Source: Eukaryota sp. TZLM1-RC (Eukaryota; Protista; Metamonada: BaSk clade). From it: a stretch of 64,000 nt of DNA. The notes beneath the pieces are model-generated. The model was not told the DNA's origin, ran no database searches, and saw only the letters and a list, made by a program, of their open reading frames with translations. Shown here piece after piece: positions 3,001 to 54,823 of this stretch (position 1 is the first letter of the stretch; each line of letters opens with the position of its first letter). The position numbers and the translations under genes are program-made. The stretch spans positions 2,144,689 through 2,208,688 of the forward strand of contig JAUPSS010000007.1 in the NCBI GenBank assembly GCA_040285825.1. Direction: 5' to 3'.

Positions 3001-3393
3001 TGTGGCTGCTCTGGATTTTAAAGCAAAAGAAAAACATAGAAAATATGATAAAGAAATTGAAGATGCAAATATCGATAGAAATACACAGCTGGTTTTTATT
3101 GCTTTTCCATTTTCGATAAATGGAAGATTATCAGTTGAAGCAGAAACTTTTTTTGGATGACTTCCAAAAAATGGTGAAAGAAAAAACAATGAAAAGATTT
3201 GATATTTTTTTATGGCGTTCACGGATTCAATTTGCCATTATTAATAGATTACCGCGGTTTTTCAATCGAATTAGAGAAGCTTTAGCTAGACAGCAAGCAA
3301 ATCAAGATTTTGTAGAGAAAATCTTGGTTTAATGATAGTCGTCCCATTAGTTATGATTTAATTTAATCAAGTGTGCAAATTCAATAAATAAAT
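1..3393 (+). mobile_element. Near-complete CRE-clade (RLE-type) non-LTR retrotransposon, family A
   Basis: Consecutive ORFs encode a CCHC knuckle (CSKCRQQGHNARTC), a CxxC..CxxC finger, RT (RPIAV, QYG, LDFSNAFN, GVKQGDPLGP, YMDD), a C-terminal CxC..HxxxC finger and a restriction-like endonuclease (HDAVRD..EP..RGD..D..K). Ends in AATAAATAAAT at about 3383-3393. The 5' boundary is uncertain. Confidence 0.93.
134..3332 (+). CDS. Single RT-RLE polyprotein of the CRE element, split by about 4 frameshifts
   Basis: ORFs 128-436, 288-2261, 2224-2475, 2459-3160 and 3120-3332 join into one domain series. Breaks fall mostly in A/T runs (about 420, 2230, 3150). First ATG at 134. Confidence 0.85.
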
Positions 3394-3394
3394 A

Positions 3395-3797
3395 GAAATT
3401 TCCAATTATTCATTTGCTAAATTGTCAAGATTTAATTACTTTAAGAAGTAAGGTTCACGATGCTGTAAGAGATCAATTACTTTGTATGTACAAGTCTCAT
3501 AGAATTGAATCCTGTTTGAAACCTTTGTTATCAAACCTGTTTGATTCTGAAGATGATTTTCATAAGAATAATTGAGGTGATGTCAATTTCAACAGATTAG
3601 AAATTTCAACAGATTGCTTTAGCAAAATAGCATTGTGTTTTCTATTTTTAAGAGGATGTTGAAGTTGGTTTCTGATGCTTTGCTTTCTCTTGGATCACAC
3701 TATGAGAGAGCTGCATCAAGTTGTTTTGTTTTGGGAAAGATGGATTATTTAGATGTTGATTTATAAGTTTTCTAATAAATAATTATAATTAAAAAAA
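3395..3797 (+). mobile_element. Decayed 3' fragment of a CRE-type element (family B)
   Basis: Reads VHDAVRDQL..SHRIES..QNSIVFSIF. Similar to 44940-45520. A-rich tail. Confidence 0.7.
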
Positions 3798-3949
3798 CCA
3801 TGAATATAAATCATTCACTGTAGGAAAATTTGTTATTTGATACAGCAACTCAATCACTTTGTGTGATATTAACAATCAGATTTTTTTAGTGGATATTGAG
3901 GTGTCCTAGAATCGACCTACAAGAATTTTTATTAAATGAACAAATTTTA

Positions 3950-5244
3950 TTTTTTTATTTATTTTCCACTTAATTTCAAAACAAAACAAAACAAATTAAA
4001 ACACATAAGAAACAAAATTCTCCACACTAACTCTTGAAGAATCCTTGTAAAGCTTGGACATCATTAAATTTACATACTTGGGAACACTTCTGTATAAAGC
4101 AAGAATGAACACGATTCTTCCATAAAAACCCAACAAAATTCTCATTAATTGAACGACAAAGATTATCAAAATCATCAGAACAATTCAAACCAGACTGACC
4201 AATATTACCAAAAATCGGGAAAGCAATAGGAACAAAAGAAAACTTCCAGTAAAGGTTCTTATTTAAATCATAACTAACTCAGCATATTTGTTTCGTTTAC
4301 GAACCTCAGCCTTGTCCAAATAGCAATTAGAACTAAGACATCATCACAACAAATTGAAGCAAAGGGATCAATAGTAGTAAAATCAACAACAACTTGAAAG
4401 GAATCCACAAAAGGAGCAATTAAATCACCACAACAAGAATCAAACAAATTATTATCGCTAAAATGCTTCAACAAGGGTTCTACTTTGCAACTGGAATTGT
4501 AACACTTAAACATTTCATAGGTCACATCACGAACAGCATTATTAAGAACTGACCGATATTGAAAAAACTTCTTACAACTCACAATATGACGAAAATTGGC
4601 AGACCGTTTTTACAAGCAGAATTATTCAAATGTGCACTCGGATACAACCCTGATCTCAACCACATGTTTTGTTTCCAAGCTTAACTTCTTAGGTGAAGAC
4701 CAAATCGCCTTGGTTGCTGAGAAATTAAACTAATTCATTTTTGAATGTCTGACAAAAAGGCAGCAAAGACATAATTATTAATCTTAGTCACACTAAATCG
4801 TTTAGAGAAGTCTAGGTCTTCAAAACCATTCAGAACAGACCTTTGTAATTTCACAACAGCATGATGAAGATTAGTCACAGATCTCGAAGGGACAGAAGGC
4901 AAATTTGAAGGAAAACACATATTCCACACATCATTAAATAATTCTTGTACCATATTTTTAGGAGACTTCAATAAAGGATGTGATTCTTTCAATTAGACTT
5001 CATCAAACCGAAGTTTCCACTAAAGTAGAAAATTTTTCATACCACCAATAAAAGCACTTTTGCATCAATATTCTGCTTTTGAAAAGCCGAATCTAGCAAA
5101 CATAGGACTAAGGTAGACATGATAAGGAATTTTTAACGGACATACTTGCACCAAATTACCTCAAAAATTGGATCTCAAAGCATTAAATTGACGTGCAAAA
5201 TCATGGGAAATTGTGGAGAATAAGGAACGGAAAAGGTGATTAAA
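3950..5244 (-). mobile_element. CRE-type element (family C), 3' part; interrupted by Gypsy-1
   Basis: Minus-strand remnants NAVRDVTYEMFK..VEP..GDL..DFT. Removing Gypsy-1 and one TAAA restores SKFNHLFRS, homologous to SNFNHIFRS in family A. Confidence 0.8.
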
Positions 5245-5323
5245 TGTTGCCTAAAGTCTATTGTAGTAAAGAAAAGTCTGATTTATTTTCTATTCATATT
5301 ATATAAGCCTTAGGGCGCCAACA
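5245..5323 (-). repeat. 3' LTR of Gypsy-1 (79 bp)
   Basis: Exact direct repeat of 12462-12540 with TGTTG...CAACA termini. Contains TATATAA and AATAAA on the element strand. Confidence 0.95.
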
Positions 5324-5471
5324 CTGCTTCTTCCCTTTTTCAAAATAAATCAGCTTATATGAATATGAAATAAAAACTATATACAATTAACAAAACAACT
5401 ATAATAAATACATATAATCGATATAATATAAATAATATAATATAATATAAATAATCGATATAAACTAAGAA

Positions 5472-8400
5472 TTAGCTCCTCTTCCTAATTCTATTACTGC
5501 GTCTAGGCTTCTTAGAAGGCGTAGACTCATTGGAGGTACCTTGTCGTCGACTAATGGTACGTTTTCCAATTTTCTTGTTATCCTTACTAAATAACTTATA
5601 AGCTTCTGAGTGTCTAACCGAATGGAGTGGCTCTTCTGTTGTCTCACCGCCAAACCACTGAACAGTACAGAAACTACCTGAATCAGAGTGGTATTCTGAG
5701 AGGATTTTCTCTATAACGTGTTTTTCGGAATCGCCCGCAGCGACTGCCTTGAGGAATTCAATGTCCTGTGGATTTTCTGCGTTATAGATTTTGCAATCTT
5801 TCTTGGCAGCTTTTAATTCTGAGCCAGTAGTAAGATTCTTCAATAATAAAGTGGATTTGGAAGGAAGGTCAATAACTAAAAATGGTCCATTCCAAGATCC
5901 ATGCAATATATTATTTTGCTTGGTTTTACGTAAGACGTAGTCACCAATATTAAATACTATAAAACACGAATTAGTATTATCTACTGAAGACGGAGTATTT
6001 AATGTTTGGTGACGCTCTGCTTCTTCCCTTTTTTCTTGTAGACGAGTGTTTTTCATTTTGATGTCATCTAATAAAGGGATATTAGTTTCAAATTTGGATA
6101 AATTTCCTAATATATTAGCAGGGTCTGTTCTTGGACTAATCGAAGAACCGAACATGAGTTCGTATGGGGTAAAACCAGTTTTTCTGCTTTTAGTAGAATT
6201 TATTAATAGTTGGGATATAGGTACGTATGTAGACCAATTTCCGTAATCATTGAAATCTATTAATAGTTTCCTTAAGCATTGAAGAACGTCTCTATGTTTA
6301 CGTTCTACAAGTCCATTACTTTCTGAATAGTGGGGAATTGAGTTACTCATCTCAATCGCTAATCTGTTACACACTATTTTGAAAGTCTCATTGGCGAACT
6401 CAGGTCCATTATCACTATGAATTAACATAGGTATGCCAAAGATAGCGCAAACATTCCAAATCAAGGCATCTGCGGTTTCTAAGGCATTGAGTTCTTTTAG
6501 AGGGACTAAAATTGTATATCCAGTAAAAGAGTCTACAAATACTAATAGATATTTATTTCCTTCGTTGTCAGAATTTAGGGGTCCAATTGTATCGACATTT
6601 AATCTGGCAAAGGACGATCTGCCCATAAAGATCCTGTGGAAGGTGTTTTGATCTTTTAACTGGAGCCGTTTTTTGACAAGTTGGGCATCTTTTGACATGA
6701 TTAATAAGGTCCTTTCTCATATTGGGCCAGTAGAAATCACTTTTGGACAGTTTGTGTAAACTATCGTTTTTGCTGGGGTGACCAGATTGAACCAAACCAT
6801 GTATTAATAATAGTGCCTGTTTTCTGAGGCTCTTTGGAATCAAAATTTTGTTTTTATTATTTTTCCAAATTTGAGTGTTTACATCTAGAATTGCGTTATC
6901 AAATAAAGAGTCGTTGTTGTTTTTGGCTATTTGTTGTTCAGATCTTATCTTAGACAGCCAAGAAGAAAAAATAGGTAGGTCTTGGTGTCTACTTAGAGAT
7001 GAGATTGAAGGGATGTCTTCAAGATCCGAATCAGAATCATCGTCTAGTGGAGGTATCTCGTAATTTGAAAGTAAAGTGTCTGGTATATTTATACTACAAA
7101 TAGAAGGAGTTTCCTCGTTTTGATCCAAATCAATATTCCTCGATAACATATCTGCCCAATGGTTGTCTTCACCAGGTTCGTGGACTATGTCAAAGTCGAA
7201 TTCAGATAGTATCGGCAGCCATCTCTTTACAATTCTATTTTTCTCTGGGGCTGTAGCCAGGAATGCAATGTTTTTATGATCTGTGAAAATTGTTAAATGT
7301 CTAGTCAACAAGTAGCTTTCTAAACAACTTTCAGTTAAAATCAGAAGTATTGCGTATAATTCTTTTTGTAAGGTGGACCATTTTCTTTGTGTTTCTGTAA
7401 GTAATCTACTATAGAATGACAAAGGTTTCACTTTCCTTTTATTTAGCGGGGTTCCTGCAGGAGAGTATGGTTCAATTTCTTGCCAAATAACACCTCCTAC
7501 TGCTACATCTGATGCGTCAGTACTTATTAATACGCGCTTGCCCGGAGCTGGTAATTCAAGGGGCATGTGGTTTACTATTAGGTCTTTTATTTGTTTTAAG
7601 TAATCGTCATGCTTGCAAGTCCATTTAATTATTCTGGGTTTTCCTTTAATTAGCTCGTTAATTGGAGCAATTAATTCAGAAATACCTGGAAGCCAATCTC
7701 TAATATAATTGATGGATCCTACCAATGAGCGAACTTCTTTCACTGTTTTTGGTCTAGGGATTCTCATCAAGGCTTCGATTTTTTTCTTACTTATAAATCT
7801 AGTTTTATCCTGGAAGGTACTTCCTAAAATGTCGATAGGGTGTTTTGATGTTACGAATTTACATTTACGTAAGCCTATATTTACACGTCTATTTCTGGCG
7901 CATTGGAGGACTCTTTGTAATCTCTTATAGAATTCTTCGAAAGTCGTTTCAACTATTATGATATCATCAATATATATAAAAACGCCATCAATTTGGAATA
8001 TTTCCATCATTACATTTTGGAAAACTGCTGGGATGTTCTTTAATCCGAAGCAAGCTCTTTTAAACATAATTGATCTTCCAGGGATTGAGATTGATGTTTT
8101 CTCAATATCCTTCTCAGCAACATTCATCTGCCAGAAAGCTTTTGGTAAATCAAGCGTGGCGATGTAATTTGCTCTACTCAAAAATTCTAATATATCACTA
8201 ATCCTAGGTAGATTAGGCTCTACTGAAATCGTATGGGCATTAACTCCATCTTTACCACTAAAGTCTCCAGTTAACCTGGGTTTTTTTGCCGTCAGGGTAT
8301 ATAACTAAGACAATAGGAGAGCTGAATTTATAATTAGATTCAACTGCATAGCCCATTTCGATCAGTTCATCAAATATTTTGTTTGCTATTTCCATTTTGC

Positions 8401-11400
8401 TGGGATTTAACCGTCTAGCAGGTTTATGTACTATAGCATTCTCATCTCTAAAGGGGATTGTTAGAGGATTACAATCGATTCCTTTTCTATTAGGAGTTTC
8501 ACTAAAAACATCGCTGAATAATTTTAGTAGACTCGTTAATTTTAATTTATTATTACTATCATCTAAATTTATCTCACATCCAGATCTTGCTAATTGCTCC
8601 TCAAAATCAGAAGGACTTGGTGATTGGTTATCTAAGTTCCCAATCGAATGTTGAGCGATCCTAGAGTCGAATTCTGATTCTGCATTTAGCAAAGTGCGGT
8701 GTTCTTTGTCTAATCTAATGAAAAGACCATCATCCGTCTGAAGCCCAAGTGCTTTTAACATGTCTGTCCCTATTAATAATTTGTTCGAACCCGGGATTAT
8801 GGGAAGAGTATGTTTATAGTGAACTTGTTGCGCAATGCTTCCTACGTTGAACGACAGAATACCAGTTGCACTCCCTAGCGATTTTGTGGATACGTTATTA
8901 GCTGGTAAGAACTTAATAGTATCCTTGCTATTGATTGACATATGGCATTGTTCAGCTAAATCTGCAGTAATAACTGAACAAAACGCAGCCGAATCTATAG
9001 TCGCAATCATTTTAATATCATTTATTGATATCTCCAGTCTTAGAAATGGAGAACGCTGGGACCTGACGTGGTTTTCACTAACCGTAGAATTAATATCAAA
9101 AATGCTATTGATATCAGAGCTGGTTTGGTGAATTTGTAGAGGAATTAAAAGATTTTGTTGAGCTGTTGGAAAGTTGTTGACTGGGTTTCCTAAATCGGTT
9201 GTTGATTGGTTGTGATTGATTGCGTTGATATGTACCCGATTAGGAAAGTTGCCTGTCCTGCTGTTCCGGTTGCTGTTGTTGATCCGTCTGTGAGGAACCG
9301 TACTCGAACGGGTCGGTTTTGACTCAGTAGGGGATGCGTTTGATGATATGTCCTCTGTTGTGTTTATGTTATGTATAGGTCTGTACTGACCTCTTCCTTT
9401 ATGACCTCTATAACGGCCTCCACGGCCTCTAAATTTGAATCTATGTACACGTCTACCACGGCCACCTCGGCCCCTTTCTACACTGCCTCTACTAGCAGGC
9501 GCCTCCTGTTCTCCTAATCTGAATCTTTCTTCTTTGGGAACTCTGCTTCTAGCACAACGAGGATCTTTGCATTCGAATACAGTGTGGCCAACAGGATTGT
9601 TACCTTCGACGTTGCTGCAGAATGTACAGAATTTTGACCCTTCTCGTTCATGCTTTTCAGGGATGTATTTGTGTTGAGGGGTTCCTCTTGACTTTCCACC
9701 TGATCGTCTTGCTCGTTTTGTTGGAGCCTGGGCTGATGGTGTTACTCCTCTTGAGTAAGTTCTCATTGCCGTGAGTCCCAAAGGAATATCTTCTTCGTTA
9801 GCCCTGTTCCTTAGTACATCCATTGTGGGCTTGTTTCCTGCTGTGTAACACCAAGCGAGGAAATGTCTTCTCGTTGTCGATATCAAATCGAGTAGAGTTG
9901 TTTTGTTCGGTGAGTCCCACAAGGATTCCCTAGTCCATACTGGGAGGAGTTCGCTTGATATAGCAAAGTTATCCAGACCCATAAGGAAGTACTCGGCTAT
10001 TAGAGCGGGAGATATGGTTATCAACCCACTGCTTCCTCTAATTAAATCGGGGATGGTTAGGTCGGTCATGTAGGTGGTCATTCTCAAGACGTCTCCAAAA
10101 TCTTCTACATAACGACCAAACTCGTTGTCAGCCTCATGCCTATTGTGGATTTTCCTCCAATTTATTCTAGGCTTCATTAGAGCTGTACAAGCCTCATGAT
10201 ATGATGTGAATTGCGTTCTTTTTAACAGAAATACCATGACGTCGGCGTCGGTATAATCAACACCGAGTAAACCTTGACTCTGCCATCTAGATAGAAGGCT
10301 AGGGTCGATCATGCTGGATATTCCTGTGGGGCAAGTGCTCATCATCATGCTCCTAAATAAATCATAATGGTGGATTGGGGGTCCGAGCTTATCTGTTATA
10401 GCTGGATCAATCCTTACCAAAGGCTGTGTTGTATCCCTGGTGATCTCGTCGCGTATATGTTTGGGGAGATCTTTAATCCTATCTTGGGTTATTTCTGCTT
10501 GGCCTTCTCCAAATAGCTGGGTAGCTATCATAAAGGCTCTGGTCCAATCTGATTGACCTGGGGCTTCGAAGCTTCTATTAGCTATCTTTCGCCCGTATTT
10601 ATCCCAAGTTTGATATTTTAAAAGAAAAGCTATGATAGACATTTTGTTAATAGGGTCATCAGCGGATAATCGAGGTCTTTTATAGTCGATATCCTTAGAC
10701 CGTGGATCAATCTGTCTATGAAGGCTACTAGCTATGCTCATGTCAATAGCTCTTCTTGAGGATTGTAGGTCCTCAATACGCATAGGTCTATCGGAAGAAG
10801 AGTCTCTTACTGAGGGTTGAGGAGGAGCCGTTTCTCCAACGACTGGCCCGTTCAACTCAATGTCTTCTCCAATTTCACTTTCCATGGGTTGACAGGAAGT
10901 TGGTTCTTCCTGAGGTGCAACGTCTTGTCTTGTTACAGGTTCCGGGTCGTTCACTGTTGGAACATGATCGGGTATGCTGTCGATAGAGCAGACCTGTATT
11001 GGTTGGCTTTTTTCAGAAATTATAGGGGCTACAACAGGCAGTTTGGGAAGGTGGAGAGATGTGGATGGATCTCCCGTTACCCATTGTCTAAACTCTCGTT
11101 GTTTTGTGAACGAGTTACCATGTTGTTGGGTGTAGTTGTTAGGACGGCTCCTATACGTGGATACAGCTGATCGTTCCGTATGAATGTTATTTAGAGCGTC
11201 TGCATCAAACCAGGGGGTTACTGGTTCAAGCTTGTCTTGTTCACTACTATCCTCCTGCTCCATAAATTCCCTAAAATATGTGGGAGCACCCTCTGTCAGC
11301 TCCGTGTAATTATGGATTTCCGTATCAAAGTTAGGATCAAACCAGGCAGGCAATTTGGATTGTAGGATGTCTTCCGAGTCGGTCCTACTTCTCTGTTCGA

Positions 11401-12384
11401 TGGAGAGAAACCTTATTCTCCTGCCGTATTGATCTAGGAAGGAGGCCTTCCAATCCAATCTATCTTTGATGGGAAGAGACATCAATTCATTGATTCTCTT
11501 GTCCATTCCAGAGATTCTGGGGCGGCGTTCTGCGTTACGCCCGAATGTCTCTCTACTCAATTTATCGAGTGCCTTTATGAGTTCATTCCTTTCATTGAGG
11601 GGAATTTCCAATACCTTTTGGGTATCCCCAATCATTCCGAGGGTCTGAAAACCAACGTTTCTGCCTCTTTTTGAACGTAACTCCATAAAGGGGGAAGTTG
11701 CTCGAACAGACAGAAATCTGTTGGTTCGAGGTAAGCCTCCGCGTCCTCTCTTAATAACTTGTAGAACCCCTCAGAAGAGTCGTCTTCTCCCTCCATTTCA
11801 TCTAGTTGAGATTGAATTTCTTCATATTCTCCTAATGGGGAAGACGTGTCTAAGGTGGGATCTCCATCCGTTCCCTTTGAGACAGGTTCTAGAATTGGGA
11901 GGGGAGAGGGAGCCAGGTCCGTTCTCGTTGCCTCTTCCATTGCTTTGAGGGGAGAGGGAGCCGGGTCCGTTCTCGTAACCTCATCTGTTTCTTTTTTCCT
12001 GAGGGGAGAGGGAGCCGGGTCCGTTCTCGTTGCCTCATCTGTTTCTTTTTTCCTGAGGGGAGAGGGAGCCAGGTCCGTTCTCGTAACCTCATCTGTTTCT
12101 TTTTTCCTGAGGGGAGAGGGAGCCGGGTCCGTTCTCGTAACCTCATCTGTTTCTTTTTTCCTGAGGGGAGAGGGAGCCGGGTCCGTTCTCGTTACCTCTT
12201 CTGTTGTTGAAGATGGAGGAACCTCGTCCACTCTTTCATCTTCTTCTACATTAAGGGAGGGGGAGGTGGGATCCGGGTCCGTTGCCTCGTTGCCCTCTAT
12301 ATCATGTGTATGTGACGCTGGTACCTGCTGCATATTAAGTGGTGGATTAGAGTCAGAGATATCTGGTTGGGAGATGTCTGACAT
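5472..12384 (-). CDS. Gypsy-1 gag-pol polyprotein (Gag with Zn finger and RGG tract, protease, RT, RNase H, integrase, chromodomain-like), with homopolymer-associated frameshifts
   Basis: Protease IDSAA; RT TLDLPKAFWQ and YIDD; RNase H ISTDASD..ELYA..TDHKN..WADMLSR; integrase H..H..CPTC, DTIGPL, HSDNGPEF, NGLVER; GPF motif; VIEKIL..VQWFG..TEEP. Confidence 0.9.
11895..12200 (-). repeat. 54-bp coding tandem repeat in the Gag N-terminus (VTRTDPAPSPLRKKETDE), 4 full plus 2 partial units
   Basis: Directly visible in the DNA and in the 250-aa ORF 11632-12384. Confidence 0.92.
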
Positions 12385-12461
12385 GCTGTAAAGTGTCTGA
12401 AGATGTTCGCTAATGCTGAAGTTATGGTATACCTTTTGACTTTAAAATGGCCAATAATTAT

Positions 12462-12540
12462 TGTTGCCTAAAGTCTATTGTAGTAAAGAAAAGTCTGATT
12501 TATTTTCTATTCATATTATATAAGCCTTAGGGCGCCAACA
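12462..12540 (-). repeat. 5' LTR of Gypsy-1 (79 bp)
   Basis: Exact direct repeat of 5245-5323. Confidence 0.95.
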
Positions 12541-12830
12541 TAAACTTTGATCCAAAACATACATTCAGGACCGAAAACGCTAAATGCATGTCAATGTTGG
12601 CTCCCTAAAACTTATATAAACTTATAAACTTAAGCGAAAAATTGAGTTGAAAGCATTTTTGAAATCAATAAGCAATAAATAATTTTCGCTTTCTTTGAAA
12701 AAGTGAATCTGTACACAAAGCAGCACAGGTTGTTCCATCAGGATCTCCAGGTGCAAACTTATAAGGCCGAAAGAAAGTAATTGCGGATAACTTAATTCTA
12801 TTAAAACAAATAATTGCCAACAAATTGATC
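12541..12830 (-). mobile_element. CRE-type element (family C), upstream part on the other side of Gypsy-1
   Basis: Reverse complement reads LNVCFGSK into the TSD, preceded by a GDPDG..LLCV remnant of the GDPLGPLLFC RT motif. Confidence 0.7.
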
Positions 12831-32299: not shown

Positions 32300-34220
32300 A
32301 TAAAATGGTCTCATCGGACCTGTTTAAATGTAAAGACAATCTTCATCTCAACTATGAAGCATCACTTTATAGATGTTCGTTCGAGGAGCTCGTATCAGAT
32401 TTTGTTATAGAATAAAATGTTTATTAATTTTTTGAGTGCTAAAAATGTACACGTGGGTCAGCTGAACAACATGATATCTACATTAGCTGTTTTGTTTGTT
32501 GACATGGGGTACAAATAGAATCATTGGGTACACAAAAGCAAACTCAACGAAGAACTCCCGTTCATAACTCATCATAATCATAATGAAAACTTGAGCTTCA
32601 AACCAAGAAGTTCAGAAAAGTTGAAAGTGTCCCAAACATCAGGATAAACAGTGAAAATTGTTCCCATACCTGAATTTTCTGAAAAATCAACTCAACAAAG
32701 AACAAATCATCCAATGGATTTTCACTCGTTTTTGTGCACTTAACACGCTACTGATCCCTGTAGCAGTGCAACATATTCGGGCTGACCTTCCTTTGGTCGC
32801 CGAGATTTGTCATGAAGCTTCTTTATTGTTTCAATCTTCTGTTGAATTTGCCGTTGGGAGCTAGAATTCAAGTGGAACAGGATGTATGGTTTCTTTTCAT
32901 GACCGTCATCACCACTGGTTCTTTTCCAAACCCATCCACCTCTAAAGGACAACGCCAATTACTACATATCTTTTACAATGGAATGCTTCCTGAATGCCCA
33001 CAGGACAAGCCTCTTGTTTCTACATGAAGAAATTCTTTAGTTCTTCATGGAAATTCATTCAATATTTTCCTCAATGATTGGCTGCAGTCACAGACATGTA
33101 ATTTCATTAATAGAAAAGTACTTTCTCCTTACCTTGCCTGTTGGGCTCGTCAATTGACATCTTATGTTAACACAAGTTTACCTAAATTTGTGTTACATGC
33201 AACTGACCTGGCCATACCAATGACCATTCAACCAATCATACCGATGACTACTCAAAGGACCATAGTACGGACTCTAACACCGCAACTGTTATTTTAACTA
33301 TCCCAAAAAGGACTTTAAAGATTTGACCAATGATTGTAAAAAAACAACCAATATGGTCAAAATACGAAACTAGGAACAAATTGGAACAGTGTTCATAGGG
33401 TCAAACCTTTCTTTCTTTCAGTGGTCTATCGCGACAAAAGGAGTTACTCAAGCCATAATCCGCCCATAGCAACATAAGAGGCAATTGTGGTGATGACGAT
33501 GTTTTCTTTACCAGTGTATAGAGCGAGGGAGCAGATGTTGGTCAAGGCGTTTTTGATGCGTTCAAATGCTACTTGATGGGTGCTATTCCAGGCATGAGTC
33601 TTTTTTGGTGTCAGAATGCCCATGTCGTTGGACAAACTTGGATAAAATCGCGAAAGTAGTTAACTCCTGCAATAAAGGAACTCAATGACTACAAGTCATG
33701 AGAAAATGGACCACACAGATGACTTTTGAGGTTACGAAGATCAATTGAACCAAAAGAAATTTTGATAAACTGAACAAACAAAAGTAATTTTTTGGGCCGA
33801 AAAACAATTTTAGTCTTTGGGGCATAGAGACGAACACGGTGGTTTTTGGCACAACGTTGTACATCAATTATGCCTTCTGTTAATGATTCGAAAATTGGTG
33901 CCGAAACAACGATGTGATCAATGCAAACAAAAACAAGGTATGTAGAACCATTCTCAGGAGTAAGTATATTGGACACGAGATTCTGAAAAATACTTGGTAT
34001 GTTTTTGGAGCCAATAAACTCACATTTGAATTCAATGGCGTTTCTTATAATCCCAAAAGCAACTTTCGGCATATCTTCCTCGATGAAAACAACTTGGTAA
34101 AAATTACGTGGTAGGTCGAATTTGGCAATAAATAATGCAGTTCCTAGAGTTTGTCCGACATCAGAAACTAGGGAAAAGTGAGCAATATATGGCTTTAGTG
34201 TTGGTGTTAGTTTCGTCAAC
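32300..34220 (-). mobile_element. Highly decayed Ty3/Gypsy relic (RT-RH-IN)
   Basis: FIAKFDLPRNFYQ, KNIPSIFQN, VCIDHIVV, QVAFERIK, IASYVAMGG and ATKGRSA(NG.VER-like) remnants with many stops. Confidence 0.75.
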
Positions 34221-34404
34221 GCCGGAATGATTGCCTTTCAAGCTGCGTTTTTTTCTTTTTTCAAAATTCAAATTCGGAGATTGGTGGATACTAGTGGATT
34301 TCCAAGCCAAGCCTGTTTGGATGCTTTCTTTCATCAAATTTCTAGCAATTTTGAAACAATGAGAGTTCAGAGGTCGAAACTTTTTGAAGACGCGAACAGC
34401 TTCA

Positions 34405-35490
34405 TCTTTTGATACTAATTGATTTATGGGGATATTTAAATATAATCTCATTTTTGTTACAAACGCTTCATAAGTGGCACAAAGTCCAAATCTTCGTGGT
34501 ACAATAGTTACAAACAGTGAAGAATCTGATAACTGGTTTTCACAAACGCCCTTTTTCAATAACAATGAGTGAAGATCTTGACCTCCAAACGGACGAGCTG
34601 CATATATCATAACAAAGATCATTTTCATACATTCCAGTCAATCGTTTGTACACCAATAAAAGCACATGAAGTAAGAATAGAAGCATTTGTGCAACCCAAA
34701 CCGGCATAATGTGGACTAAGATCAGCATGATTTGGATTTCGGAACATTTTACATCCCAATAATTGTGACAAAACTTTTGCGCGTAATTCATTAAACTTCT
34801 GGGCCAAAGGCATAGTGATGAGAGATTTTGTAGATCGAAATATATGATTAAAGTTGAAACTAAAACACAGTTTTATAATGGTAAATTTGATATGTTTTTG
34901 TAAATCAAATGTCATCTTTCGGTCAATTTTTCGGAAATTGAGTTCAATCTTTTAAACAACTCTTTGGTAATTTCATCATTATTTCCTCAAAAGGAACCCA
35001 AATGACGAATGGCGTCAATTGGATATAATTTGGCTTGAATCTCAATACCATTAACTATTGTAGAAACTGGAGCATTTGAAAGTAAAACACATTTCAGTAA
35101 ATTAAGTTGGAGGCCAATTTTGTTAAATATTGCCTTGAAACATACAGTTGCATCTCTGGCAATCTTTAAATCACCTATAAAAACAACAACATCCATATAT
35201 GCAATCATTTTTAGTGAAGGAAACATCTCTTGAATTTGCAGTAAAATAGGATGAATGGCCAAACAAAACAAAAGAGCTCCTAAAGGATCTCCTTGATTTA
35301 CACACCTTGATGATTTCAAAATAGAATTACCAAAATGCAAATTAGCATTTGTGCTATATGTTGATTGGAAGTTAGGCATTAATTCCGGTGAATATTGTAA
35401 CAAAGCACCATGAATACTGCAACGACTGATTGAATTGAATACATTGCTGAAATCCAACAAAATACAAACATTGGACTCATTTTGACGAAT
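34405..35490 (-). mobile_element. Internal CRE family A fragment (RT to thumb), decayed
   Basis: LDFSNVFN, QGDPLGALLFCLAIHP, YMDV and TIVPRRFGLCAT, collinear with 1400-2690. Confidence 0.9.
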
Positions 35491-36717
35491 AATTTGAAAT
35501 TAAATTATGAAAAACATATTAATCGATTTATTAATGTTTATTTTGACAAACCAGATGCGGAAAATGTGTTAGCAAAAATGCACAAACTAGGTGGGTACGC
35601 AACGCCATTGTTTACTATAATTTTATTAAAGAGATTTAGACTTCGACAATTCAAAAACATGTTTTAGTTGACGATAGAGATTACTTGAATCCTTTAAGAG
35701 TTGCACCTGAAAATTTTTTAGACCTTTTTGGTGATGAGTTTTCAAATTTGTGTCAACATCATGATATTAGAAACAATGAAGGTAACGAAATCTTTTATGG
35801 TCTTATAACACCCTTTACTTGTCAAATTGAAAATTTAGCCACGGATGAAAGTCTGGTTGACAATATATGTCCAGTGGATGTACATTTTCTTACAGATGCT
35901 GTTGAGAAAGATCTTCAGATATTCTTAAAACCATCAATTACGATTGCTCAACATATTGCCAGTCGAGAGGGGAAACCTTATCAAATGACCTCTGTATCAA
36001 CCAACGTAGGTACGGGATATTTTCCAATTGACACAAGAACAATATGGACAATTATAAGACAAAGAATTACAATTATTAGAACAATTATTAGAGTCTAATG
36101 AAATGACAATCGAAGATGCAAACACCGAATCATCTGCGTTTGCAGCCAATTCAGCAACTTTTATAGATTTTTCCAACTTTGTGGTTGCCAAACTTCGGCA
36201 AGTTTTTTGACAATTGACTTTTACAGTCTTGACTTGTGGAGCACTCATAAAATGCAAGCTTTTATTCACAATTCAAAAGACTGTAAGTTGATTGTTAAAA
36301 AGCCTTGTTCAGAATTCTGGCAACTCAAAAGACAGTTCAATAGTAATGGGTAATTATGGTAAAAAAGGTTCCAACAAGTTGAAACATCAAAGACCTACTC
36401 GAGGCATTTGATGGATTCAATTTCTGAACAGCAATGGTTTTAAAGTGTTGATGATTAATGAAGCTTTCACTTCAGCAAAATGTCCTGTTTGTTGAAAAGG
36501 TTGCTACGTTTTTGAGAGTAACAAATTCCAGTTGCTAGAGAAAAGAAAAAACTCATGTCTGTCATGGTTAGCTTGTAACAGTAACAGTTGCAAATTCAGC
36601 AACAAAGGCTCAACAAAGCTTTTCAATAAAAATAGGCTGGCTTGTTTGAATATGTATGCAAGTGCTAAAACCAGAATGAGTGCCAATTAAAAGCCTCAGT
36701 ATCTGTGTAGTAGATAG
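35488..36717 (+). pseudogene. Fanzor1 (TnpB/Cas12-related RNA-guided nuclease) pseudogene, copy 1
   Basis: Ordered Fanzor1-type motifs: NNLKLNYEKHINRFINVYF; FLKP..EGKPY..YFPIDT; F..FV.AK..FY..HKMQAFI; IVMGNYG..KHQRPTRG; GFKVLMINEAFTSAKCPVC (RuvC-II plus Zn finger); CHG.LAC..C; KLFNKNRLACLNM; PQYLCSR*. The RuvC-I segment is missing, and there are stops and frameshifts. Confidence 0.85.
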
Positions 36718-36766
36718 TTTTTGTTATTATTCTGCACGAAAATTGTGTACTTATGGGAATTTCCCA
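36690..36766 (+). ncRNA. Candidate Fanzor omegaRNA scaffold / element right end, copy 1
   Basis: Non-coding sequence after the stop is conserved with copy 2 up to TGGGAATTTCCCA, then diverges. Two hairpins: TGCACGA-AAA-TTGTGTA and TGGGA-ATT-TCCCA. The 5' limit is unknown. Confidence 0.5.
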
Positions 36767-45641: not shown

Positions 45642-45809
45642 TGTTGGCTTCAGTGCACGGTTTTCCATAAACTTAATAAAAACAGATGTTTATAAACGGA
45701 GGTAGAAAATCAACAATAAACTAAACAATAACAAATTTAAACTAATGATGACGTGATACATCACGTCATACTTTCCGAAATCGGCAAGAGGAGTTTAGCC
45801 TGGCTAACA
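45642..45809 (-). repeat. 3' LTR of Gypsy-2
   Basis: TG...CA termini, direct repeat of 52795-52962. Confidence 0.95.
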
Positions 45810-45829
45810 CTGCCTCTTCTTCCTTCTTT

Positions 45830-48800
45830 TTCGTTGTTTCTTGGCCGCAGGATCGGATAGTTTCACATAACGGGAATAGGCGGAAGTATTCTTAATGGAT
45901 GACAGGTTGTTTAGTGGTAGTCCCATCAGACCACAAAACGGTAGCTAGGTTACTAGAGATGTCGAGAATAGCGTCCAGGAAGGCCTCTCCGGAATCTGCA
46001 GCGGCATAGGCATCTAATACAGCGGGCGGCAAGGAAGAGTAGCAAGGCTTGATGAAGTGTACTGAGGTCTTCAAAGAAGAGCGGGTAACAGGATTCAGAA
46101 CAAGGATGGAGCTAGAGGACAGGATCTTCTGCACGGTGTAGGGTCCGACATAATGACCATGGAGTTTGTCTGGCTTCTGACGCAGAACAAAGACTCGGTC
46201 ATTCACCTGAGGACGATAAGAGGGCTCGGGCATATCAATAGTAGATTGGTCGAGCGATTGGCCTACAGCTTCCCAGGAAGAGATGAGCTTCTCTGTCAAC
46301 TTATGCAGATGTTCGATGAATTCTGGCTTGTCAGCAGGCAAGGAATGGGAGGCGAAGGAAGTCAATAGCTGGTTGGGCAGAAGACGAGGAGAGGTGTCAG
46401 ATCCGAAAATTAGACTATATGGAGAGGCGTTCAGAGCTTTCCTTTCTTGTGAGTTTAATACCATCTGGCAGAGGGCAACGTAATCAGACCAGTTAAGGTA
46501 ATCGGAGAAGTCGAGCAGCATACGTCGGATGACTTGAAGAAAGCTTCGGTGTTGGCGTTCTACTAATCCATTGGATTGATGGTAGTGGGGCAAGGATTGG
46601 GTATGTTCAACGTTCAGGAATTGGCATAGTAGACTGAATATCTTGTTGGCGAATTCGGGACCGTTATCAGAGTGTATACAACGTGGGGCACCGAAAACGG
46701 CGTAAACAGAGGAGATTAAGGAGTTGTCTACGGTTAATGCTTTAAGATCTTTCGTAGGAACTAGGATACTGAACTTGGAGAATGCATCAACAAAATGAAC
46801 AATATATCGGTAGCCATAGGAGTCAACGGACAGGGGTCAATGGAATCGCAGTGGAGACTTTCAAATGGGCGGCGAACGGAATTCAAAGATCCAGTGGAAG
46901 AGATCAATGTCTTGGGAACGGGAGCAGTCTTTTGGCAAGGGATACAAGTATTGACGTGGGTTTGCAGGTCGTTTCGCATGTCGGGCCAGTGGAAGTCGGA
47001 CTGTTGGAGGGACTTCCAACATTGGGCGAAGGGAGGATGGCTGGCTTCGGTAGATCCGTGAACCAGAAGGAGAATCTCGGATCGAAGAGAAGGCGGGACC
47101 AAGATCTTATTGGATTGGGTTAGTTTTAAACCCAGTTGAGGTTCGATCTTGCAGTCAACAAACAGAGGGTCACTATCGGGGATCTTTTGCTGTTCCTTGA
47201 ATAACTTGTCGAGGAATGAACGGGTGGGTGAGTTTCTGGCAAGGAGATTGCTGATCAAATCGGAACTGGCAGGAGATTCAGATAGGGAATGAACCAAGGA
47301 AGCAACGTGGTGAGAGTCGGAGTCAGAGGAGATCTCGATTATGGCTGAATCGGAACTGAATCTTCGATCAAGTTCGTCATCCTCAGACATGAACTGGGAA
47401 CGGAGAAAACGGGGATGATCAAATACTTCAGGGTGGAGTTCAAAGATCTCTTTGCGGGTAGGCAAGTGGAAGCGGGAGCTGGGGAGGTAGTAAGCCGGAG
47501 GAAGGTCTGGGGAGCGATTGACATTAACGAAGGCCTGACGACCATCACTATAATCAATGATATCGAGGACTTTATCTCGTAAAACGAAGTCAAGACGGGA
47601 GTGATATTGAGTAGGGCCGTCAAACAGAAGAGAACGGATGTCCTCGAAGTGAGAGCAAACTTGAGAGGTTTCTAGTATGAACTGAGGTTCGTTTTCGGTT
47701 CCGAGGACGGAGCGATAATCCAGCGGCAAATAGTGGTAGTGAATTCTTCTATCATGAGGGTCTATTTGAAGGCCATGAACCATCTCCAGGCATGGAATGG
47801 CTATAGGGCAGGGAGTGATCTCGTCATCGTCGTAGTGGTAGACTGAGTGGATCTCGGGCTTGATTAGGCAAAGGGGAATGAAGGAAGTGATGTCTCGAGA
47901 TGAAGGTAGAGTATGCTTGGCGTAAAAAGAGTCAGGGAGAGTTTGATGATCAGTTAAGGCGGGGCGTCTAGAGGAAGGTCTCAGGTCAGAATATGTCAGA
48001 GCAGTAGGATGTAAACAGAAGTCATATAGCTGTTCACCAAAAGGGGTACCAGTATGCGTATCAGGGATCCAAGGGAAATGATCACATTTGGGGGAGTTGG
48101 GACATTCTCTGGGGCTGCATGGAGGAGGGGTTGAATCATGAAAGCAGCGGCTACTTTGGTCAGCGCGTTTCCATAGGCTGGGGAAATACAACGGTGGTGG
48201 GTCCTTATTCAGATACGATTGATTGATTAGAAAGTGGTATCGGTGAGTGAGGTGACGGTTTCTTTCCCAGCTAAAAGGGACCATGTGAGTAGGGAGAGGA
48301 ATCAAGTGGAAAATATGCGCGTGGTTAATCAGAGAACCTAGGGTGACATCGGGATGAATGTAGTTGAAGATAATGAGGTGAGCGTTCAGGGGCATAACCT
48401 TGGGAAGGTAGTCTAAATGGGGCATCTTGGGATGGTGGAAGTATATACGAAAGTTCCAATTGGCATGTTGAACCAAATCATTAACCTTGAAGTTTCTAGC
48501 ATATAGACCAAGGGGTTCAGCTTCGGGATCAGTAGGAACGGACACGGGTCGAGGGTCGAAAGCAGCTTTGCCAAAATCTCTTGGAGCGATTGTGTTGTTA
48601 AACAGAAGTGGTAAATCAGTTGAGAGGACGAAGAGACGAGCAGACGAGGGAGAGAGTAGTTCGTGAGGTTCGGGATTCAGATTATATTGAATGAAGTGTT
48701 TGCGGGAGTTGAGGTAAGCAGTCACAGAATGCTCAGGACGGAGGGCGGAAGGATGATGGGTTCTACGAGCGGTATCAAAGTCAATGTCGTACCAATGAGG

Positions 48801-50766: not shown

Positions 50767-52821
50767 TCAGATAGTGGCTCCAGTGTCTACCATTCCGTAC
50801 AGGAAGGTCTGTTCATCGACCAGAATCTTCAAATGGAGCAGCTTTTTGTCTACAGGCTTGTTGAGTTCTTTCTTAAATAGTGAGATCATGGACTCAGCGG
50901 AGGAGTCGTCCTTCTTGAACAATTCCTTAGATCCTTTGGTCTTGTTCCTAGAGCGTTTCTTGGTTAATTCAGAGGCATCATGCGTTACTCCACCGTCGGC
51001 GTAAGCACAGTCGGCGTCGACCAGCCCAGACTCAGTGTCGAGGTCGGGACTAGCTTCCAACGACAAAGAGTCTATGTTACGGGAGGGAGCCTTTCCTGGC
51101 GGTACCACATGAGATGAGCCTGAGGAAACTTTCGAAACTAACTCGTTAGAATTAGACACTGGATTGGGGGATAGTTCAGAGGAGGATGAAGGAGATCGAG
51201 AGATAAGAGCGTGATTGGCATCTACAACAGGAGGGGTTATTGAATCTAAGTTGTCGAAGAGTTCTTGAGACTCTAGCGCTTCAGAGAATGATAAGGAAGG
51301 TGTGGAGCTTCTGGATGTGGATGGAGATGTCGTATAGTTATAAAGGATTATTGAGGAGAAAGGATTGAGGGTCAAACTATAAGAATCATTATCAGAACTA
51401 GAGGGGGACGAGGACATTACTCCATGCGGGAAGATGCTCTCGACGGCAGCATCTTCTTTCAAAGCAGACTGAATCGAATCGACGATTGAATTAACTTGGG
51501 GCTTTTCAGAGTTGGCGTCGGTTACTTGATTGACTTGGCGGTGAAGGTTGTGCTTTCTTTGGAGGGTAGGATTGTTTCCATATTTTCGAGGTTTGCTAGC
51601 TTTGCATCCAGGCTTTGGGCAGTCTTTCACCATATGGCCGGGTTCCTTGCAATAAAAGCAAGTTATGGGAGAGGGAGACTTCTGAAGGGAGATATATTTT
51701 TGCTCAGAACGAGGACTTTGACGGGAAGGCGAGGACTTAGGGGTAGAACGGACAGAATAAGACTTGTTAGCAGAGCGGTGAGCCTGGGGAGTTCGAGAGT
51801 TCTGACGAGAGGGTTGAGATCTAGGAGGAGGGTTTGGGCCATGCAGAGTATAGTAAGCAGAGTACGGGAGGTGATAGGAAGGGAGAAGCTGACGGAGACG
51901 AGAGACTAAGGAGGAGAAGCCATCAATAGAGCCAGTTTCTATGTCGGTTCGGATGATAAAGCGGAGTCTCTCGGGACGTATTCCATTCGTAAAGAACTTC
52001 ATACGAGCAGATTCGGGTAATTCGGAGGGACAGAGTCGGAGTTTCTTGAGGAAGACAGAGATATAGGATGTAATAGCTTCTTCAGCGGTTGGGGCGGACA
52101 GATTGAGTTTCAGAGATTGAAGCTTGTGATAAGCCTCAGCAGAGTCTTCAAAACGGCAAAAGGATAACAAGTGGGAAAGGACGGCTTCAGGGTCGTTGAA
52201 GTCGATTCCTTCGAAGATCTCGAAGGTTTCCAACACCACGGGGGCAATAGTACATAACACGTACGGCAGCATGGCTTGATGAAGCTGATTTTCAGAGACG
52301 AGGCGACGCTTTTCAAAAGTAGCAACATTGGTCGTGTCAGAAGAGTCAGAAAGCGGGTCTTGGCTATCTTCGTAATTCATCTCAGATGGAAGTTTGAAAG
52401 TTCGAGGGTTCAGGGACGAGCTAGACTTTCTCGTACCAGTGGAGGCAGAAGTGGATTCGGAGGGGTTTTCAGTACCCAGTTCGGAATTCTCATTGAGAGA
52501 AAGTTGGGATTTCAGAGCAGCGACTTCTTGAGCGAGAGCCTTGATAGCTTCTCGGTCAGAATCGCAGGAGGAGGACTCGGATGCCTTCGTACTGGAAGGA
52601 GACTGAGAGTGAGTGGAAGACGGATATCTTCTTGTCATGTCTGACGAGACATGATTGGAGGACATACGGGATACGTACACCTTAAGCGCTTCCACATACT
52701 GGGAGATGGCTTCTCGACCAGTGTGTTGTAAATATGGAGCGACTTGAGGGTACCTGGCTACGGAGGTGGATTCTCTGGGGTCCACAGTAATTACTGTTGG
52801 CTTCAGTGCACGGTTTTCCAT
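50767..52821 (-). CDS. Gypsy-2 Gag and start of protease
   Basis: 684-aa ORF with a CCHC knuckle, ending at MVDTGATI*. The first ATG lies inside the LTR. Confidence 0.85.
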   Translation of the reverse strand: MENRALKPTVITVDPRESTSVARYPQVAPYLQHTGREAISQYVEALKVYVSRMSSNHVSSDMTRRYPSSTHSQSPSSTKASESSSCDSDREAIKALAQEVAALKSQLSLNENSELGTENPSESTSASTGTRKSSSSLNPRTFKLPSEMNYEDSQDPLSDSSDTTNVATFEKRRLVSENQLHQAMLPYVLCTIAPVVLETFEIFEGIDFNDPEAVLSHLLSFCRFEDSAEAYHKLQSLKLNLSAPTAEEAITSYISVFLKKLRLCPSELPESARMKFFTNGIRPERLRFIIRTDIETGSIDGFSSLVSRLRQLLPSYHLPYSAYYTLHGPNPPPRSQPSRQNSRTPQAHRSANKSYSVRSTPKSSPSRQSPRSEQKYISLQKSPSPITCFYCKEPGHMVKDCPKPGCKASKPRKYGNNPTLQRKHNLHRQVNQVTDANSEKPQVNSIVDSIQSALKEDAAVESIFPHGVMSSSPSSSDNDSYSLTLNPFSSIILYNYTTSPSTSRSSTPSLSFSEALESQELFDNLDSITPPVVDANHALISRSPSSSSELSPNPVSNSNELVSKVSSGSSHVVPPGKAPSRNIDSLSLEASPDLDTESGLVDADCAYADGGVTHDASELTKKRSRNKTKGSKELFKKDDSSAESMISLFKKELNKPVDKKLLHLKILVDEQTFLYGMVDTGATI

Positions 52822-52962
52822 AAACTTAATAAAAACAGATGTTTATAGACGGAGGTAGAAAATCAACAATAAACTAAACAATAACAAATTTAAACTAATG
52901 ATGACGTGATACATCACGTCATACTTTCCGAAATCGGCAGGAGGAGTTTAGCCTGGCTAACA
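52795..52962 (-). repeat. Shared middle LTR (5' LTR of Gypsy-2 and 3' LTR of the upstream partial copy)
   Basis: Flanked by gag on one side and by PPT plus integrase on the other. Confidence 0.93.
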
Positions 52963-54072
52963 CTGCCTCTTCTTCCTTCTTTTTCGTTGTTTCTTGGCCG
53001 GAGGATCGGATAATTTCACATAACGGGAATAGGCGGAAGTATTCTTAATGGATGACAGGTTGTTTAGTGGTAGTCCCATCAGACCACAAAACGGTAGCTA
53101 GGTTACTAGAGATGTCGAGAATAGCGTCCAGGAAGGCCTCTCCGGAATCTGCAGCGGCATAGGCATCTAATACAGCGGGCGGCAAGGAAGAGTAACAAGG
53201 CTTGATGAGGTGTACTGAGGTCTTCAAAGAAGAGCGGGTAACAGGATTCAGAACAAGGATGGAGCTAGAGGACAGGATCTTCTGCACGGTGTAGGGTCCG
53301 ACATAATGACCATGGAGTTTGTCTGGGTTCTGGCGCAGAACAAAGACTCGGTCATTCCATTGAGGACGATAAGAGGGCTCGGGCATATCAATAGTAGATT
53401 GGTCGAGGGATTGGCCTACAGCTTCCCAGGATGAGATGAGCTTCTCTGTCAACTTATGCAGATGTTCGATGAATGGGAGGAATGGGAGGCGAAGGAAGTC
53501 AATAGCTGGTTGGGCAGAAGACGAGGAGAGGTGTCAGATCCGAAAATTAGACTATATGGAGAGGCGTTCAGAGCTTTCCTTTCTTGTGAGTTTAATACCA
53601 TCTGGCAGAGAGCAACGTAATCAGACCAGTTATGGTAATCGGAGAAGTCGAGCAGCATACGTCGGATGACTTGAAGAAAGCTTCGGTGTTGGCGTTCTAC
53701 TAATCCATTGGATTGATGGTAGTGGGGCAAGGATTGGGTATGTTCAACGTTCAGGAATTGGCATAGTAGACTGAATATCTTGTTGGCGAATTCGGGACCG
53801 TTATCAGAGTGTATACAACGTGGGGCACCGAAAACGGCGAAAACAGAGGAGATTAAGGAGTTGTCTACGGTTAATGCTTTAAGATCTTTCGTAGGAACTA
53901 GGATACTGAACTTGGAGAATGCATCAACAAAATGAACAATATATCGGTAGCCATAGGAGTCAACGGACAGGGGGCCAATGGAATCGCAGTGGAGACTTTC
54001 AAATGGGCGGCGAACGGAATTCAAAGATCCAGTGGAAGAGATCAATGTCTTGGGAACGGGAGCAGTCTAACA
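52963..54072 (-). mobile_element. Tandem partial second copy of Gypsy-2 (integrase only) ending in a residual LTR terminus
   Basis: Near-identical to 45810-46930. Ends in CTAACA followed by CATT (54073-54076), which matches CATT at 45638-45641. Confidence 0.88.
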
Positions 54073-54461: not shown

Positions 54462-54774
54462 TTTCTGAAAAGAAATGGTTTTAAAGTGTTGATGATTAAA
54501 GAAGCTTTCACTTCAGCAAAATGTCCTGATTGTTTTGAAAAGGTTGCTACGTTTTTGAGAGTAACAAATCCCAGATTCTATAGAAGTATAGAAGTGAAAA
54601 GACTCCATTTACTACATGTCATTGTTTATTAGCTTGTAACAGTGAGAGTTGCAAATTCAGCAATATAGAACAAAGCTTTTCAATAGAAATAAACTGGCTT
54701 GTCTGAATATGTTTGCAATTGCTGAAGCGAGGATGAGTGGTAATGAAAGGCCTCAGTATCTGTGCAGTAGATAG
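54462..54774 (+). pseudogene. Fanzor1 C-terminal fragment, copy 2
   Basis: FLKRNGFKVLMIKEAFTSAKCPDCFEKVATFLRVTNPRFYR..TCHCLLACNSESC..KLFNRNKLACLNMFAIAEARMSGNERPQYLCSR*. Clear DNA similarity to 36421-36717. Confidence 0.88.
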
Positions 54775-54823
54775 TTTTTGTAATTATTCTGTACGAAAAT
54801 TGTGTAATTATGGGAATTTCCCA
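54747..54823 (+). ncRNA. Candidate Fanzor omegaRNA scaffold / element right end, copy 2
   Basis: Conserved with 36690-36766 and has the same two hairpins. The terminal A is the A of the ATG at 54823. Confidence 0.5.

Follow-up and report, generated by a model that had tools for sequence, protein, structure and literature searches.

Comparison of LTR/leader junctions in two element families of the 64-kb window (the whole stretch of DNA that was analysed) and in their distant relatives indicates that a perfect palindrome at this junction is genuine and selected, and marks a palindromic primer site of a Gypsy lineage. In our judgement the case is evenly balanced that this palindrome is a self-priming signal acting in trans, in which element RNAs would pair and a 3' end at +4 to +10 of the leader would prime the partner. 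Such a site would explain why many protist elements yield nothing in PBS finders. With compensatory changes at many positions and three registers, the Gypsy cases make the priming question testable, and the 79-nt LTR of Gypsy-1 offers a very compact test substrate.

Gypsy-1, Gypsy-2 and their LTR/leader junctions

Gypsy-1 occupies the minus strand from 12540 down to 5245, and its features given below are on that strand. The 5' LTR (12462..12540) is 79 nt long, reads TG...CA and is identical to the 79-nt 3' LTR (5245..5323). The 4-bp TSD, TTTA, stands at 12541..12544 with its other copy at 5241-5244, and the polypurine tract (PPT) at 5324..5341 ends GCAG-TG. A TATA-like TATATAA in the LTR (12516..12522), recognized from the sequence, is a putative promoter element. 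Four frames share the coding region: a first frame (11632..12441, ATG at +78, position 12384) with 54-nt tandem repeats and no Pfam match; a gag-like region with an aspartic protease (weak Pfam match) and the start of the RT (8258..11770); RT, RNase H and an integrase zinc finger (6568..8304, Pfam); and the integrase core with a C-terminal extension (5472..6716, Pfam). The order protease (weak), RT, RNase H, integrase in Pfam is that of the Gypsy type, and the closest relative of solved structure for the RT frame 6568..8304 was Ty3 Gag-Pol (E 1e-45). By its TG...CA LTRs, TSD, PPT and domain order Gypsy-1 is a Ty3/Gypsy LTR retrotransposon, and it is a young one. Both breaks in pol fall at runs of A; because the LTRs are identical, these breaks are likely to be assembly errors or very recent damage. 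The best 79 protein matches all came from the isolates Eukaryota sp. TZLM1-RC, GEM-RC1 and TZLM3-RCL, which we take to be skoliomonad metamonads; a free-living flagellate from this group is therefore the likely host. Beyond these 79, most of the protein matches listed were about 26-33% identical.

Five of the 54-nt tandem repeats lie at 11892-12215 in the first frame and encode an 18-aa acidic/proline-rich repeat. The last 108 aa of the integrase C terminus gave no Pfam or PDB sequence match, and a chromodomain guessed there by eye was unsupported by these searches. The Gypsy-1 LTR starts with TGTTGGCGCCC (12531-12538, minus strand), which contains TGGCGCCC, the start of tRNA-Lys primer sites; this is the wrong end of the LTR for a primer-site role. 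Elsewhere in the window, at 279-2261 and 33641-35499, lies a non-LTR-type RT (Pfam RVT_1), of which diverged repeat copies are numerous throughout the 64 kb; the RT match at 33641-34168 is weak.

On the minus strand the 5' LTR of Gypsy-1 ends GACTTTAGGCAACA and the leader continues ATAATTATTGGCCATTTTAAAGTC. The junction therefore reads CA-ATAATTAT-TG GCC ATTT TAAAGTC, the first hyphen marking the LTR edge, and CA-ATAATTAT-TG, that is CAATAATTATTG, is a perfect 12-nt palindrome at 12452..12463 with its 8-nt core at 12454-12461. In the predicted fold the palindrome is enclosed by an outer stem, with a 5' arm in U5 (GACTTTA-GGC, 12466..12475) and a 3' arm in the leader (GCC-ATTT-TAAAGTC, 12438..12451) that is an imperfect complement of the LTR end. 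The sequence-only reading of this DNA had described both the palindrome and the imperfect stem (GACTTTA/TAAAGTC, GGC/GCC), and both were recovered. The 39-nt junction folded at -8.6 kcal/mol (z -2.9), with 2 of 200 shuffles equally good; in contexts of 67-141 nt the same hairpin was kept but was less remarkable, its z-score weakening to about -1. A search of 12300-12600 against Rfam returned just two matches (E 3.6-3.7), far under the gathering scores, which were taken as chance.

That reading had also found neither a TGG next to the LTR nor a Tf1-style complement inside it, and here too we agree. No TGG occurs in the Gypsy-1 leader before +9, so a canonical TGG-led site for a tRNA 3' end is lacking at the junction. 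When the leader start was compared with the LTR, its last 6 nt excluded, the longest Watson-Crick complement was 5 nt. The positive control, locus L146 (150-480), gave an 11-nt complement between leader start and LTR, a Tf1/sushi-type arrangement. No tRNA genes were found in the 64-kb window. Taken alone, the Gypsy-1 palindrome is modest, because the window holds 21 perfect palindromes of at least 12 nt (3.3e-4 per centre).

The second family in the window, Gypsy-2, is 55% identical to Gypsy-1 in RT/RNase H. Its LTR upstream of gag (52795..52962, minus strand) has 168 nt, and its 3' LTR (45642..45809, minus strand) differs from that copy by 2 mismatches. At the junction stands a 14-nt palindrome, ACA-GTAATTAC-TGT (52784..52797, minus strand), in the same register as in Gypsy-1. 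The +1/+8 pair, A-T in Gypsy-1, is G-C in Gypsy-2, a compensatory change that leaves the register as it was. Moreover, CARTAATTAYTG has two perfect matches in the 64 kb, both at 5' LTR junctions (Gypsy-1 and Gypsy-2), and the best local DNA alignment of the two LTR and leader regions was the stretch of LTR end and palindrome. The Gypsy-2 junction thus raises the Gypsy-1 palindrome above chance. As for other primer sites, the first TGG of the Gypsy-2 leader lies at +11, and the best Tf1-type complement to the leader start is 4 nt.

Gypsy-2 as a whole (54076-45638, minus strand) is a rearranged insertion flanked by a 4-bp duplication, AATG. Its left end has the first six bases of the LTR and then jumps into integrase coding sequence, and the full leader-gag-pol-LTR follows a partial integrase-PPT-LTR block. 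GCAG directly before the LTR TG ends the PPTs of both families (5324-5341, 45810-45830 and 52963-52983), and PPTs end TAG-TG in several metagenome relatives. Beside Gypsy-2, a repeat of about 360 nt (36421-36766 and 54462-54823, 84% identical) is possibly a transposase fragment.

The palindrome among relatives and within the family

A scan of metagenomes gave 76 Gypsy loci with 22-43% identity; for 10 distant proteins, protein clusters supplied no names. We examined 46 of these for LTRs and read heads and tails in a subset; the other 30 were short or had little DNA upstream of the match. In 15 of the 46, a palindrome of 10-14 nt lay at or adjoining an LTR-end-like CA or TA, this CA or TA itself serving to place the LTR end in most of the 15. 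The sequence-only reading had named the lack of a palindrome in related families as a refutation; the palindrome was found in Gypsy-2 and in these 15 loci. Where two copies fixed the LTR end independently, four of seven loci were palindromic (L126, L149, L154 and L164, the end of L164 being uncertain by 2 nt) and three were not (L122, L184 and L130); L160, L170, L178 and L195, which have repeats with no clean LTR end, were kept out of this count. L130 (125-165) is an AT-rich Gypsy locus in which a T-rich run after the LTR resembles the polypyrimidine site of Skipper.

Three registers were seen. The 8-nt register has GTTATAAC in L126 and TTGATCAA in L164. In the 10-nt register are ATTTCGAAAT (L127), GTAAATTTAC (L128), ATAACGTTAT (L132, L134 and L149), ATATCGATAT (L135), ATAAGCTTAT (L137) and ATAATATTAT (L138), while L133, L154, L165, L136 and L141 show a T followed by 12 nt. 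L126 reads CA-GTTATAAC-TG, in the same 8-nt register as Gypsy-1, with a 78-nt LTR and a 4-bp TSD; this element (3170-7698) is nested in the integrase of another Gypsy element.

In two trees, both quick searches with SH-aLRT support only, L126 and L127 joined the host clade (SH-aLRT 89 and 97), and the other palindromic elements occupied several deep branches; L140, being too short, was omitted, and neither L133 nor L164 was included. L122, L123, L146 and L184, which have a Tf1-type arrangement or no palindrome, formed a separate supported clade. The palindromic site may have had one origin or several. Inside one palindromic clade, L144 had no palindrome of at least 10 nt in the available DNA, its LTR end being undefined. 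In viral contigs, none of 120 loci from a scan for the junction-motif pattern encoded a related RT, and a scan for related loci gave 27 pattern matches, none of which was confirmed.

Among the 17 junction palindromes (two in the window and 15 from metagenomes) all four self-complementary centres, AT, CG, GC and TA, were found. The best fold contains the palindrome hairpin in nine (Gypsy-1, Gypsy-2, L126, L127, L128, L132, L137, L154 and L165) and lacks a palindrome-centred hairpin in the other eight (L134, L135, L138, L149, L164, L133, L136 and L141). The long outer stem, stressed by the sequence-only reading, did not prove universal. Judged across these junctions, the perfect palindrome appears as the conserved trait and the long outer stem as optional.

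Since scanning for perfect palindromes is biased towards them, a scan that leaves the two centre bases unconstrained was used to limit this bias; it covered 28 elements and 9765 nt of their LTR and leader sequence, with 300 shuffles, the regions having been picked after palindromes were already seen in many. There were 21 matches with a self-complementary centre against a shuffle mean of 3.2 (maximum 9), and 15 with a non-palindromic centre against a shuffle mean of 8.7 (maximum 20). The 21 comprise 16 distinct junctions, three second registers and two other sites; L127, at a contig edge, was missed.

Variation within the family was followed by mapping contigs of public DNA runs on the Gypsy-1 junction. 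Runs X1 and X2 come from a single sample and the three DNA sources from a single study, and hence they are not independent; in run X4 no contig matched the junction. Record 11 of run X2 had 36 letter differences and 22 gap places over 12169-12488, and an X2 contig of equal length and depth had just 2 differences over 12414-12488. Matches in X1 and X2 have loose ends at 12442 and 12477, which, if both belong to one contig, suggests another relative that matches across the hairpin alone. Diverged family members in these runs thus match around the junction with loose flanks, and they were counted in favour of self-priming. The contig with 2 differences (record 12 of run X2, depth 8) has one of them at 12458, which gives CA-ATAGTTAT-TG, by which the DNA palindrome is lost; an RNA duplex of this variant would have central G.U pairs. 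This variant counts against self-priming.

Priming by a partner RNA and its alternatives

A minus-strand primer pairs immediately 3' of U5 and points its 3' end toward the LTR. This is where the palindrome lies, and its position is what suggests a priming role; position, symmetry and compensatory change are seen in the sequences, and the stability of the duplex comes from folding. In the self-priming that we propose, two element RNAs would pair through the palindrome within the packaged RNA pair, with the U5 and leader arms as extra anchoring of the two-RNA duplex in Gypsy-1. One RNA would be cut, or would end, between +4 and +10 of the leader, and its 3' end would prime minus-strand DNA on the partner. 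A candidate nuclease is the element's own RNase H acting on RNA:RNA, as RNase H cleaves RNA:RNA in Tf1. The partner RNA would stay whole, so that the remaining reverse transcription could proceed normally. From the sequence, a primer end farther out than +10 is excluded: the leader arm complements U5 imperfectly, and the end of the LTR would then be miscopied. Copying of the primer into the plus strand would, owing to the symmetry of the palindrome, regenerate the same site.

Folding of Gypsy-1 sequences is consistent with this scheme. After a cut at +8, +9 or +10, the stem left in cis has 2-4 bp and predicted energies of +4.4, +3.5 and +0.7 kcal/mol, whereas pairing in trans with these ends gives -3.0, -5.4 and -11.4 kcal/mol. 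The 39-nt homodimer is predicted at -29.2 kcal/mol, compared with -8.6 kcal/mol per hairpin, and two separate hairpins are predicted to be less stable than the two-RNA duplex (a 12-bp core, plus the U5 and leader arms in Gypsy-1). Priming in trans is favoured because the cut cis stem is weak while the trans duplex and the homodimer are stable. Intermolecular pairing is likewise suggested by the compensatory changes, which affect many positions and span three registers. It may be noted that inheritance of the primer sequence by copying would be expected to give a perfect centre too; such a centre alone is no proof of a dimer.

The sequence-only reading had offered two routes, hairpin cleavage and pairing of two RNAs. 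Pairing of two RNAs fits better, because the centre, which would be the loop of a hairpin, is self-complementary in all four of its forms; a fold-back ending at +8 to +10 was unstable. A junction hairpin of a single RNA, cut in its 3' arm to yield a fold-back primer, is in our estimate decidedly unlikely. Such a hairpin is predicted in nine elements and is often bulged near the LTR end, as in GalEa (PMC5445492). However, a cut at +8..+10 leaves only the short stems of positive or near-zero energy given above, a cut farther out would place an imperfect complement over the LTR end, and cleavage would split the sole template. Moreover, eight junctions have no palindrome-centred hairpin in the best fold, and the loop bases are self-complementary though a hairpin has no need of it. 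Self-priming by the 5' end of the transcript, as in Tf1, is close to refuted and we give it very little weight: two GACTTT copies in the Gypsy-1 LTR could form pairs with AAAGTC at +19..+24, but this 6-nt match sits 18 nt from the LTR end, and the leader-start complements of 5 nt in Gypsy-1 and 4 nt in Gypsy-2 stand against 11 nt in the control. A palindrome by chance in AT-rich DNA would accord with the number of such palindromes in the window and with the all-A/T core of Gypsy-1. It is refuted by the compensatory change in Gypsy-2, and a second family in the same register (3.3e-4 per fixed centre) together with the distant relatives leaves it next to no probability.

Priming at +5 might instead use the 5' half of a host tRNA-Ile(AAU) cleaved within its anticodon loop, with the palindrome as an accessory dimer signal or a by-product; we think this unlikely. 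The pairings rest on proxies, 51 distinct tRNA genes taken from viral contigs and not from the host, 23 of them Ile(aat). In L149, positions +5..+15 are complementary to the anticodon arm over 11 nt by Watson-Crick pairing in 19 of these 23, ending at about position 40, and the corresponding proxy complements are 9 nt in L132 and 7 nt in L134. With G.U and inosine allowed, Gypsy-1 pairs at +5..+12 over 8 nt (21/23 proxies) or 9 nt (2/23), at -7.3 to -9 kcal/mol, and the +4 variant (12458) falls outside this stretch. Half-tRNA-Ile priming with inosine pairing is known in Bianca Copia elements, according to the accessible text of PMC6317226. The same proxies, however, pair over only 4 nt in Gypsy-2, 3 in L127, 4 in L128 and 5 in L135 and L138, and the Watson-Crick run of Gypsy-1 is at most 6 nt against any of the 51. 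Nor does a tRNA half explain the covariation of +1 with +8 or +10 and of +4 with +7. The 3' ends of the 51 non-host proxies had at most 4-5 nt of complement at the Gypsy-1 and Gypsy-2 junctions. Alternatively, the palindrome might serve only for dimer initiation or for binding of a protein (Gag, RT or integrase, on RNA or DNA), with another, unseen primer. We regard this as improbable, although our comparisons prove symmetry and nothing more, and palindromes mediate dimerization in retroviruses and are candidates for it in Ty1 (PMC3592414, in the portion available). Against it, known dimer palindromes sit beside the tRNA site and do not replace it, as far as the available text of PMC5445492 describes them; the palindrome here is fixed to the last base of the LTR, and no other primer site was found at the Gypsy-1 and Gypsy-2 junctions.

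LTR elements are known to be primed by whole tRNAs, by half tRNAs or, in the Tf1 type, by a self-primer from the 5' end (PMC6317226). Dimer priming, with one packaged genome sacrificed as primer, could be a fourth and widespread start, used in several deep Gypsy lineages and, by convergence, in GalEa Copia elements; we advance this tentatively, as rather less than an even prospect. The six bases that open the leader of L149, L132 and L134 are identical to the 3' end of the tRNA-Ile half. Speculatively, half-tRNA-Ile priming may have been the origin of dimer priming: a 5' fragment of the element's own RNA could have mimicked and replaced the tRNA half, and the palindrome may afterwards have been free to drift by paired changes.

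Comparison with known systems

No paper describing a palindromic primer site for Gypsy elements came up in our literature search, whose scope excluded most subscription journals and Repbase Reports. Such a site was reported previously, with no mechanism, in one fungal Copia clade (PMC5445492). The main text of the Skoliomonas genome preprint, as available, contains 'LTR' 0 times; its supplements may list repeats. The comparisons that follow draw on the accessible portions of the papers cited.

Dictyostelid Skipper (PMC5006619) is likewise a protist Gypsy element with no tRNA PBS, no LTR complement and priming that is unexplained, but it has a polypyrimidine run instead of a palindrome, and 'palindrom' occurs 0 times in the accessible text. 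The dimer initiation site of retroviruses and the PAL of Ty1 (PMC3592414) are, like the Gypsy-1 site, self-complementary and can pair two genomic RNAs; they differ in being apart from, and additional to, a tRNA PBS. Like Tf1/sushi elements (PMC4600332, PMC6317226), Gypsy-1 would prime at the LTR edge from its own RNA, independently of any tRNA. Tf1/sushi priming, however, needs a complement of the PBS at the 5' end of the transcript, inside the LTR, and neither Gypsy-1 nor Gypsy-2 has one. Half-tRNA priming is reported in Copia alone in what is available of PMC6317226 (1/2 tRNA-Ile in Bianca, 1/2 tRNA-Met in Osser). L149, L132 and, weakly, Gypsy-1 resemble it in complementing the tRNA-Ile(AAU) anticodon arm from +5, but it is a Copia trait, and the complement is not conserved across the palindromic Gypsy set.

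The closest precedent for the Gypsy-1 and Gypsy-2 site is the palindromic CHSeq1 of the fungal GalEa Copia elements, described in 2017 (PMC5445492). GalEa elements have no PBS; the 9-nt CHSeq1 is palindromic with the last A of the LTR, a CHSeq2 follows downstream, and the authors found no fitting model for priming. The Gypsy site shares with them the lack of a PBS and an 8-nt palindrome right after the LTR, followed by a T that pairs with the last A of the LTR. The GalEa forms A-CTGATCAG-T and A-CTAATTAG-T thus stand in the same register as A-ATAATTAT-T of Gypsy-1 and A-GTAATTAC-T of Gypsy-2, and the core TAATTA is common to both Gypsy forms and the second GalEa form. No CHSeq2-like motif was found within 70 nt in Gypsy-1 or Gypsy-2 (best 6/9); 5 of 44 GalEa families likewise have none (PMC5445492 supplement). 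Low-GC families account for most occurrences of the A/T-rich GalEa form (PMC5445492 supplement), which may reflect repeat-induced mutation. Gypsy-1 and Gypsy-2 differ in having the Ty3/Gypsy domain order and not that of the Ty1/Copia GalEa clade and, unlike in GalEa, variation in the Gypsy set is symmetric, affects many positions and extends over three registers (8, 10 and T+12).
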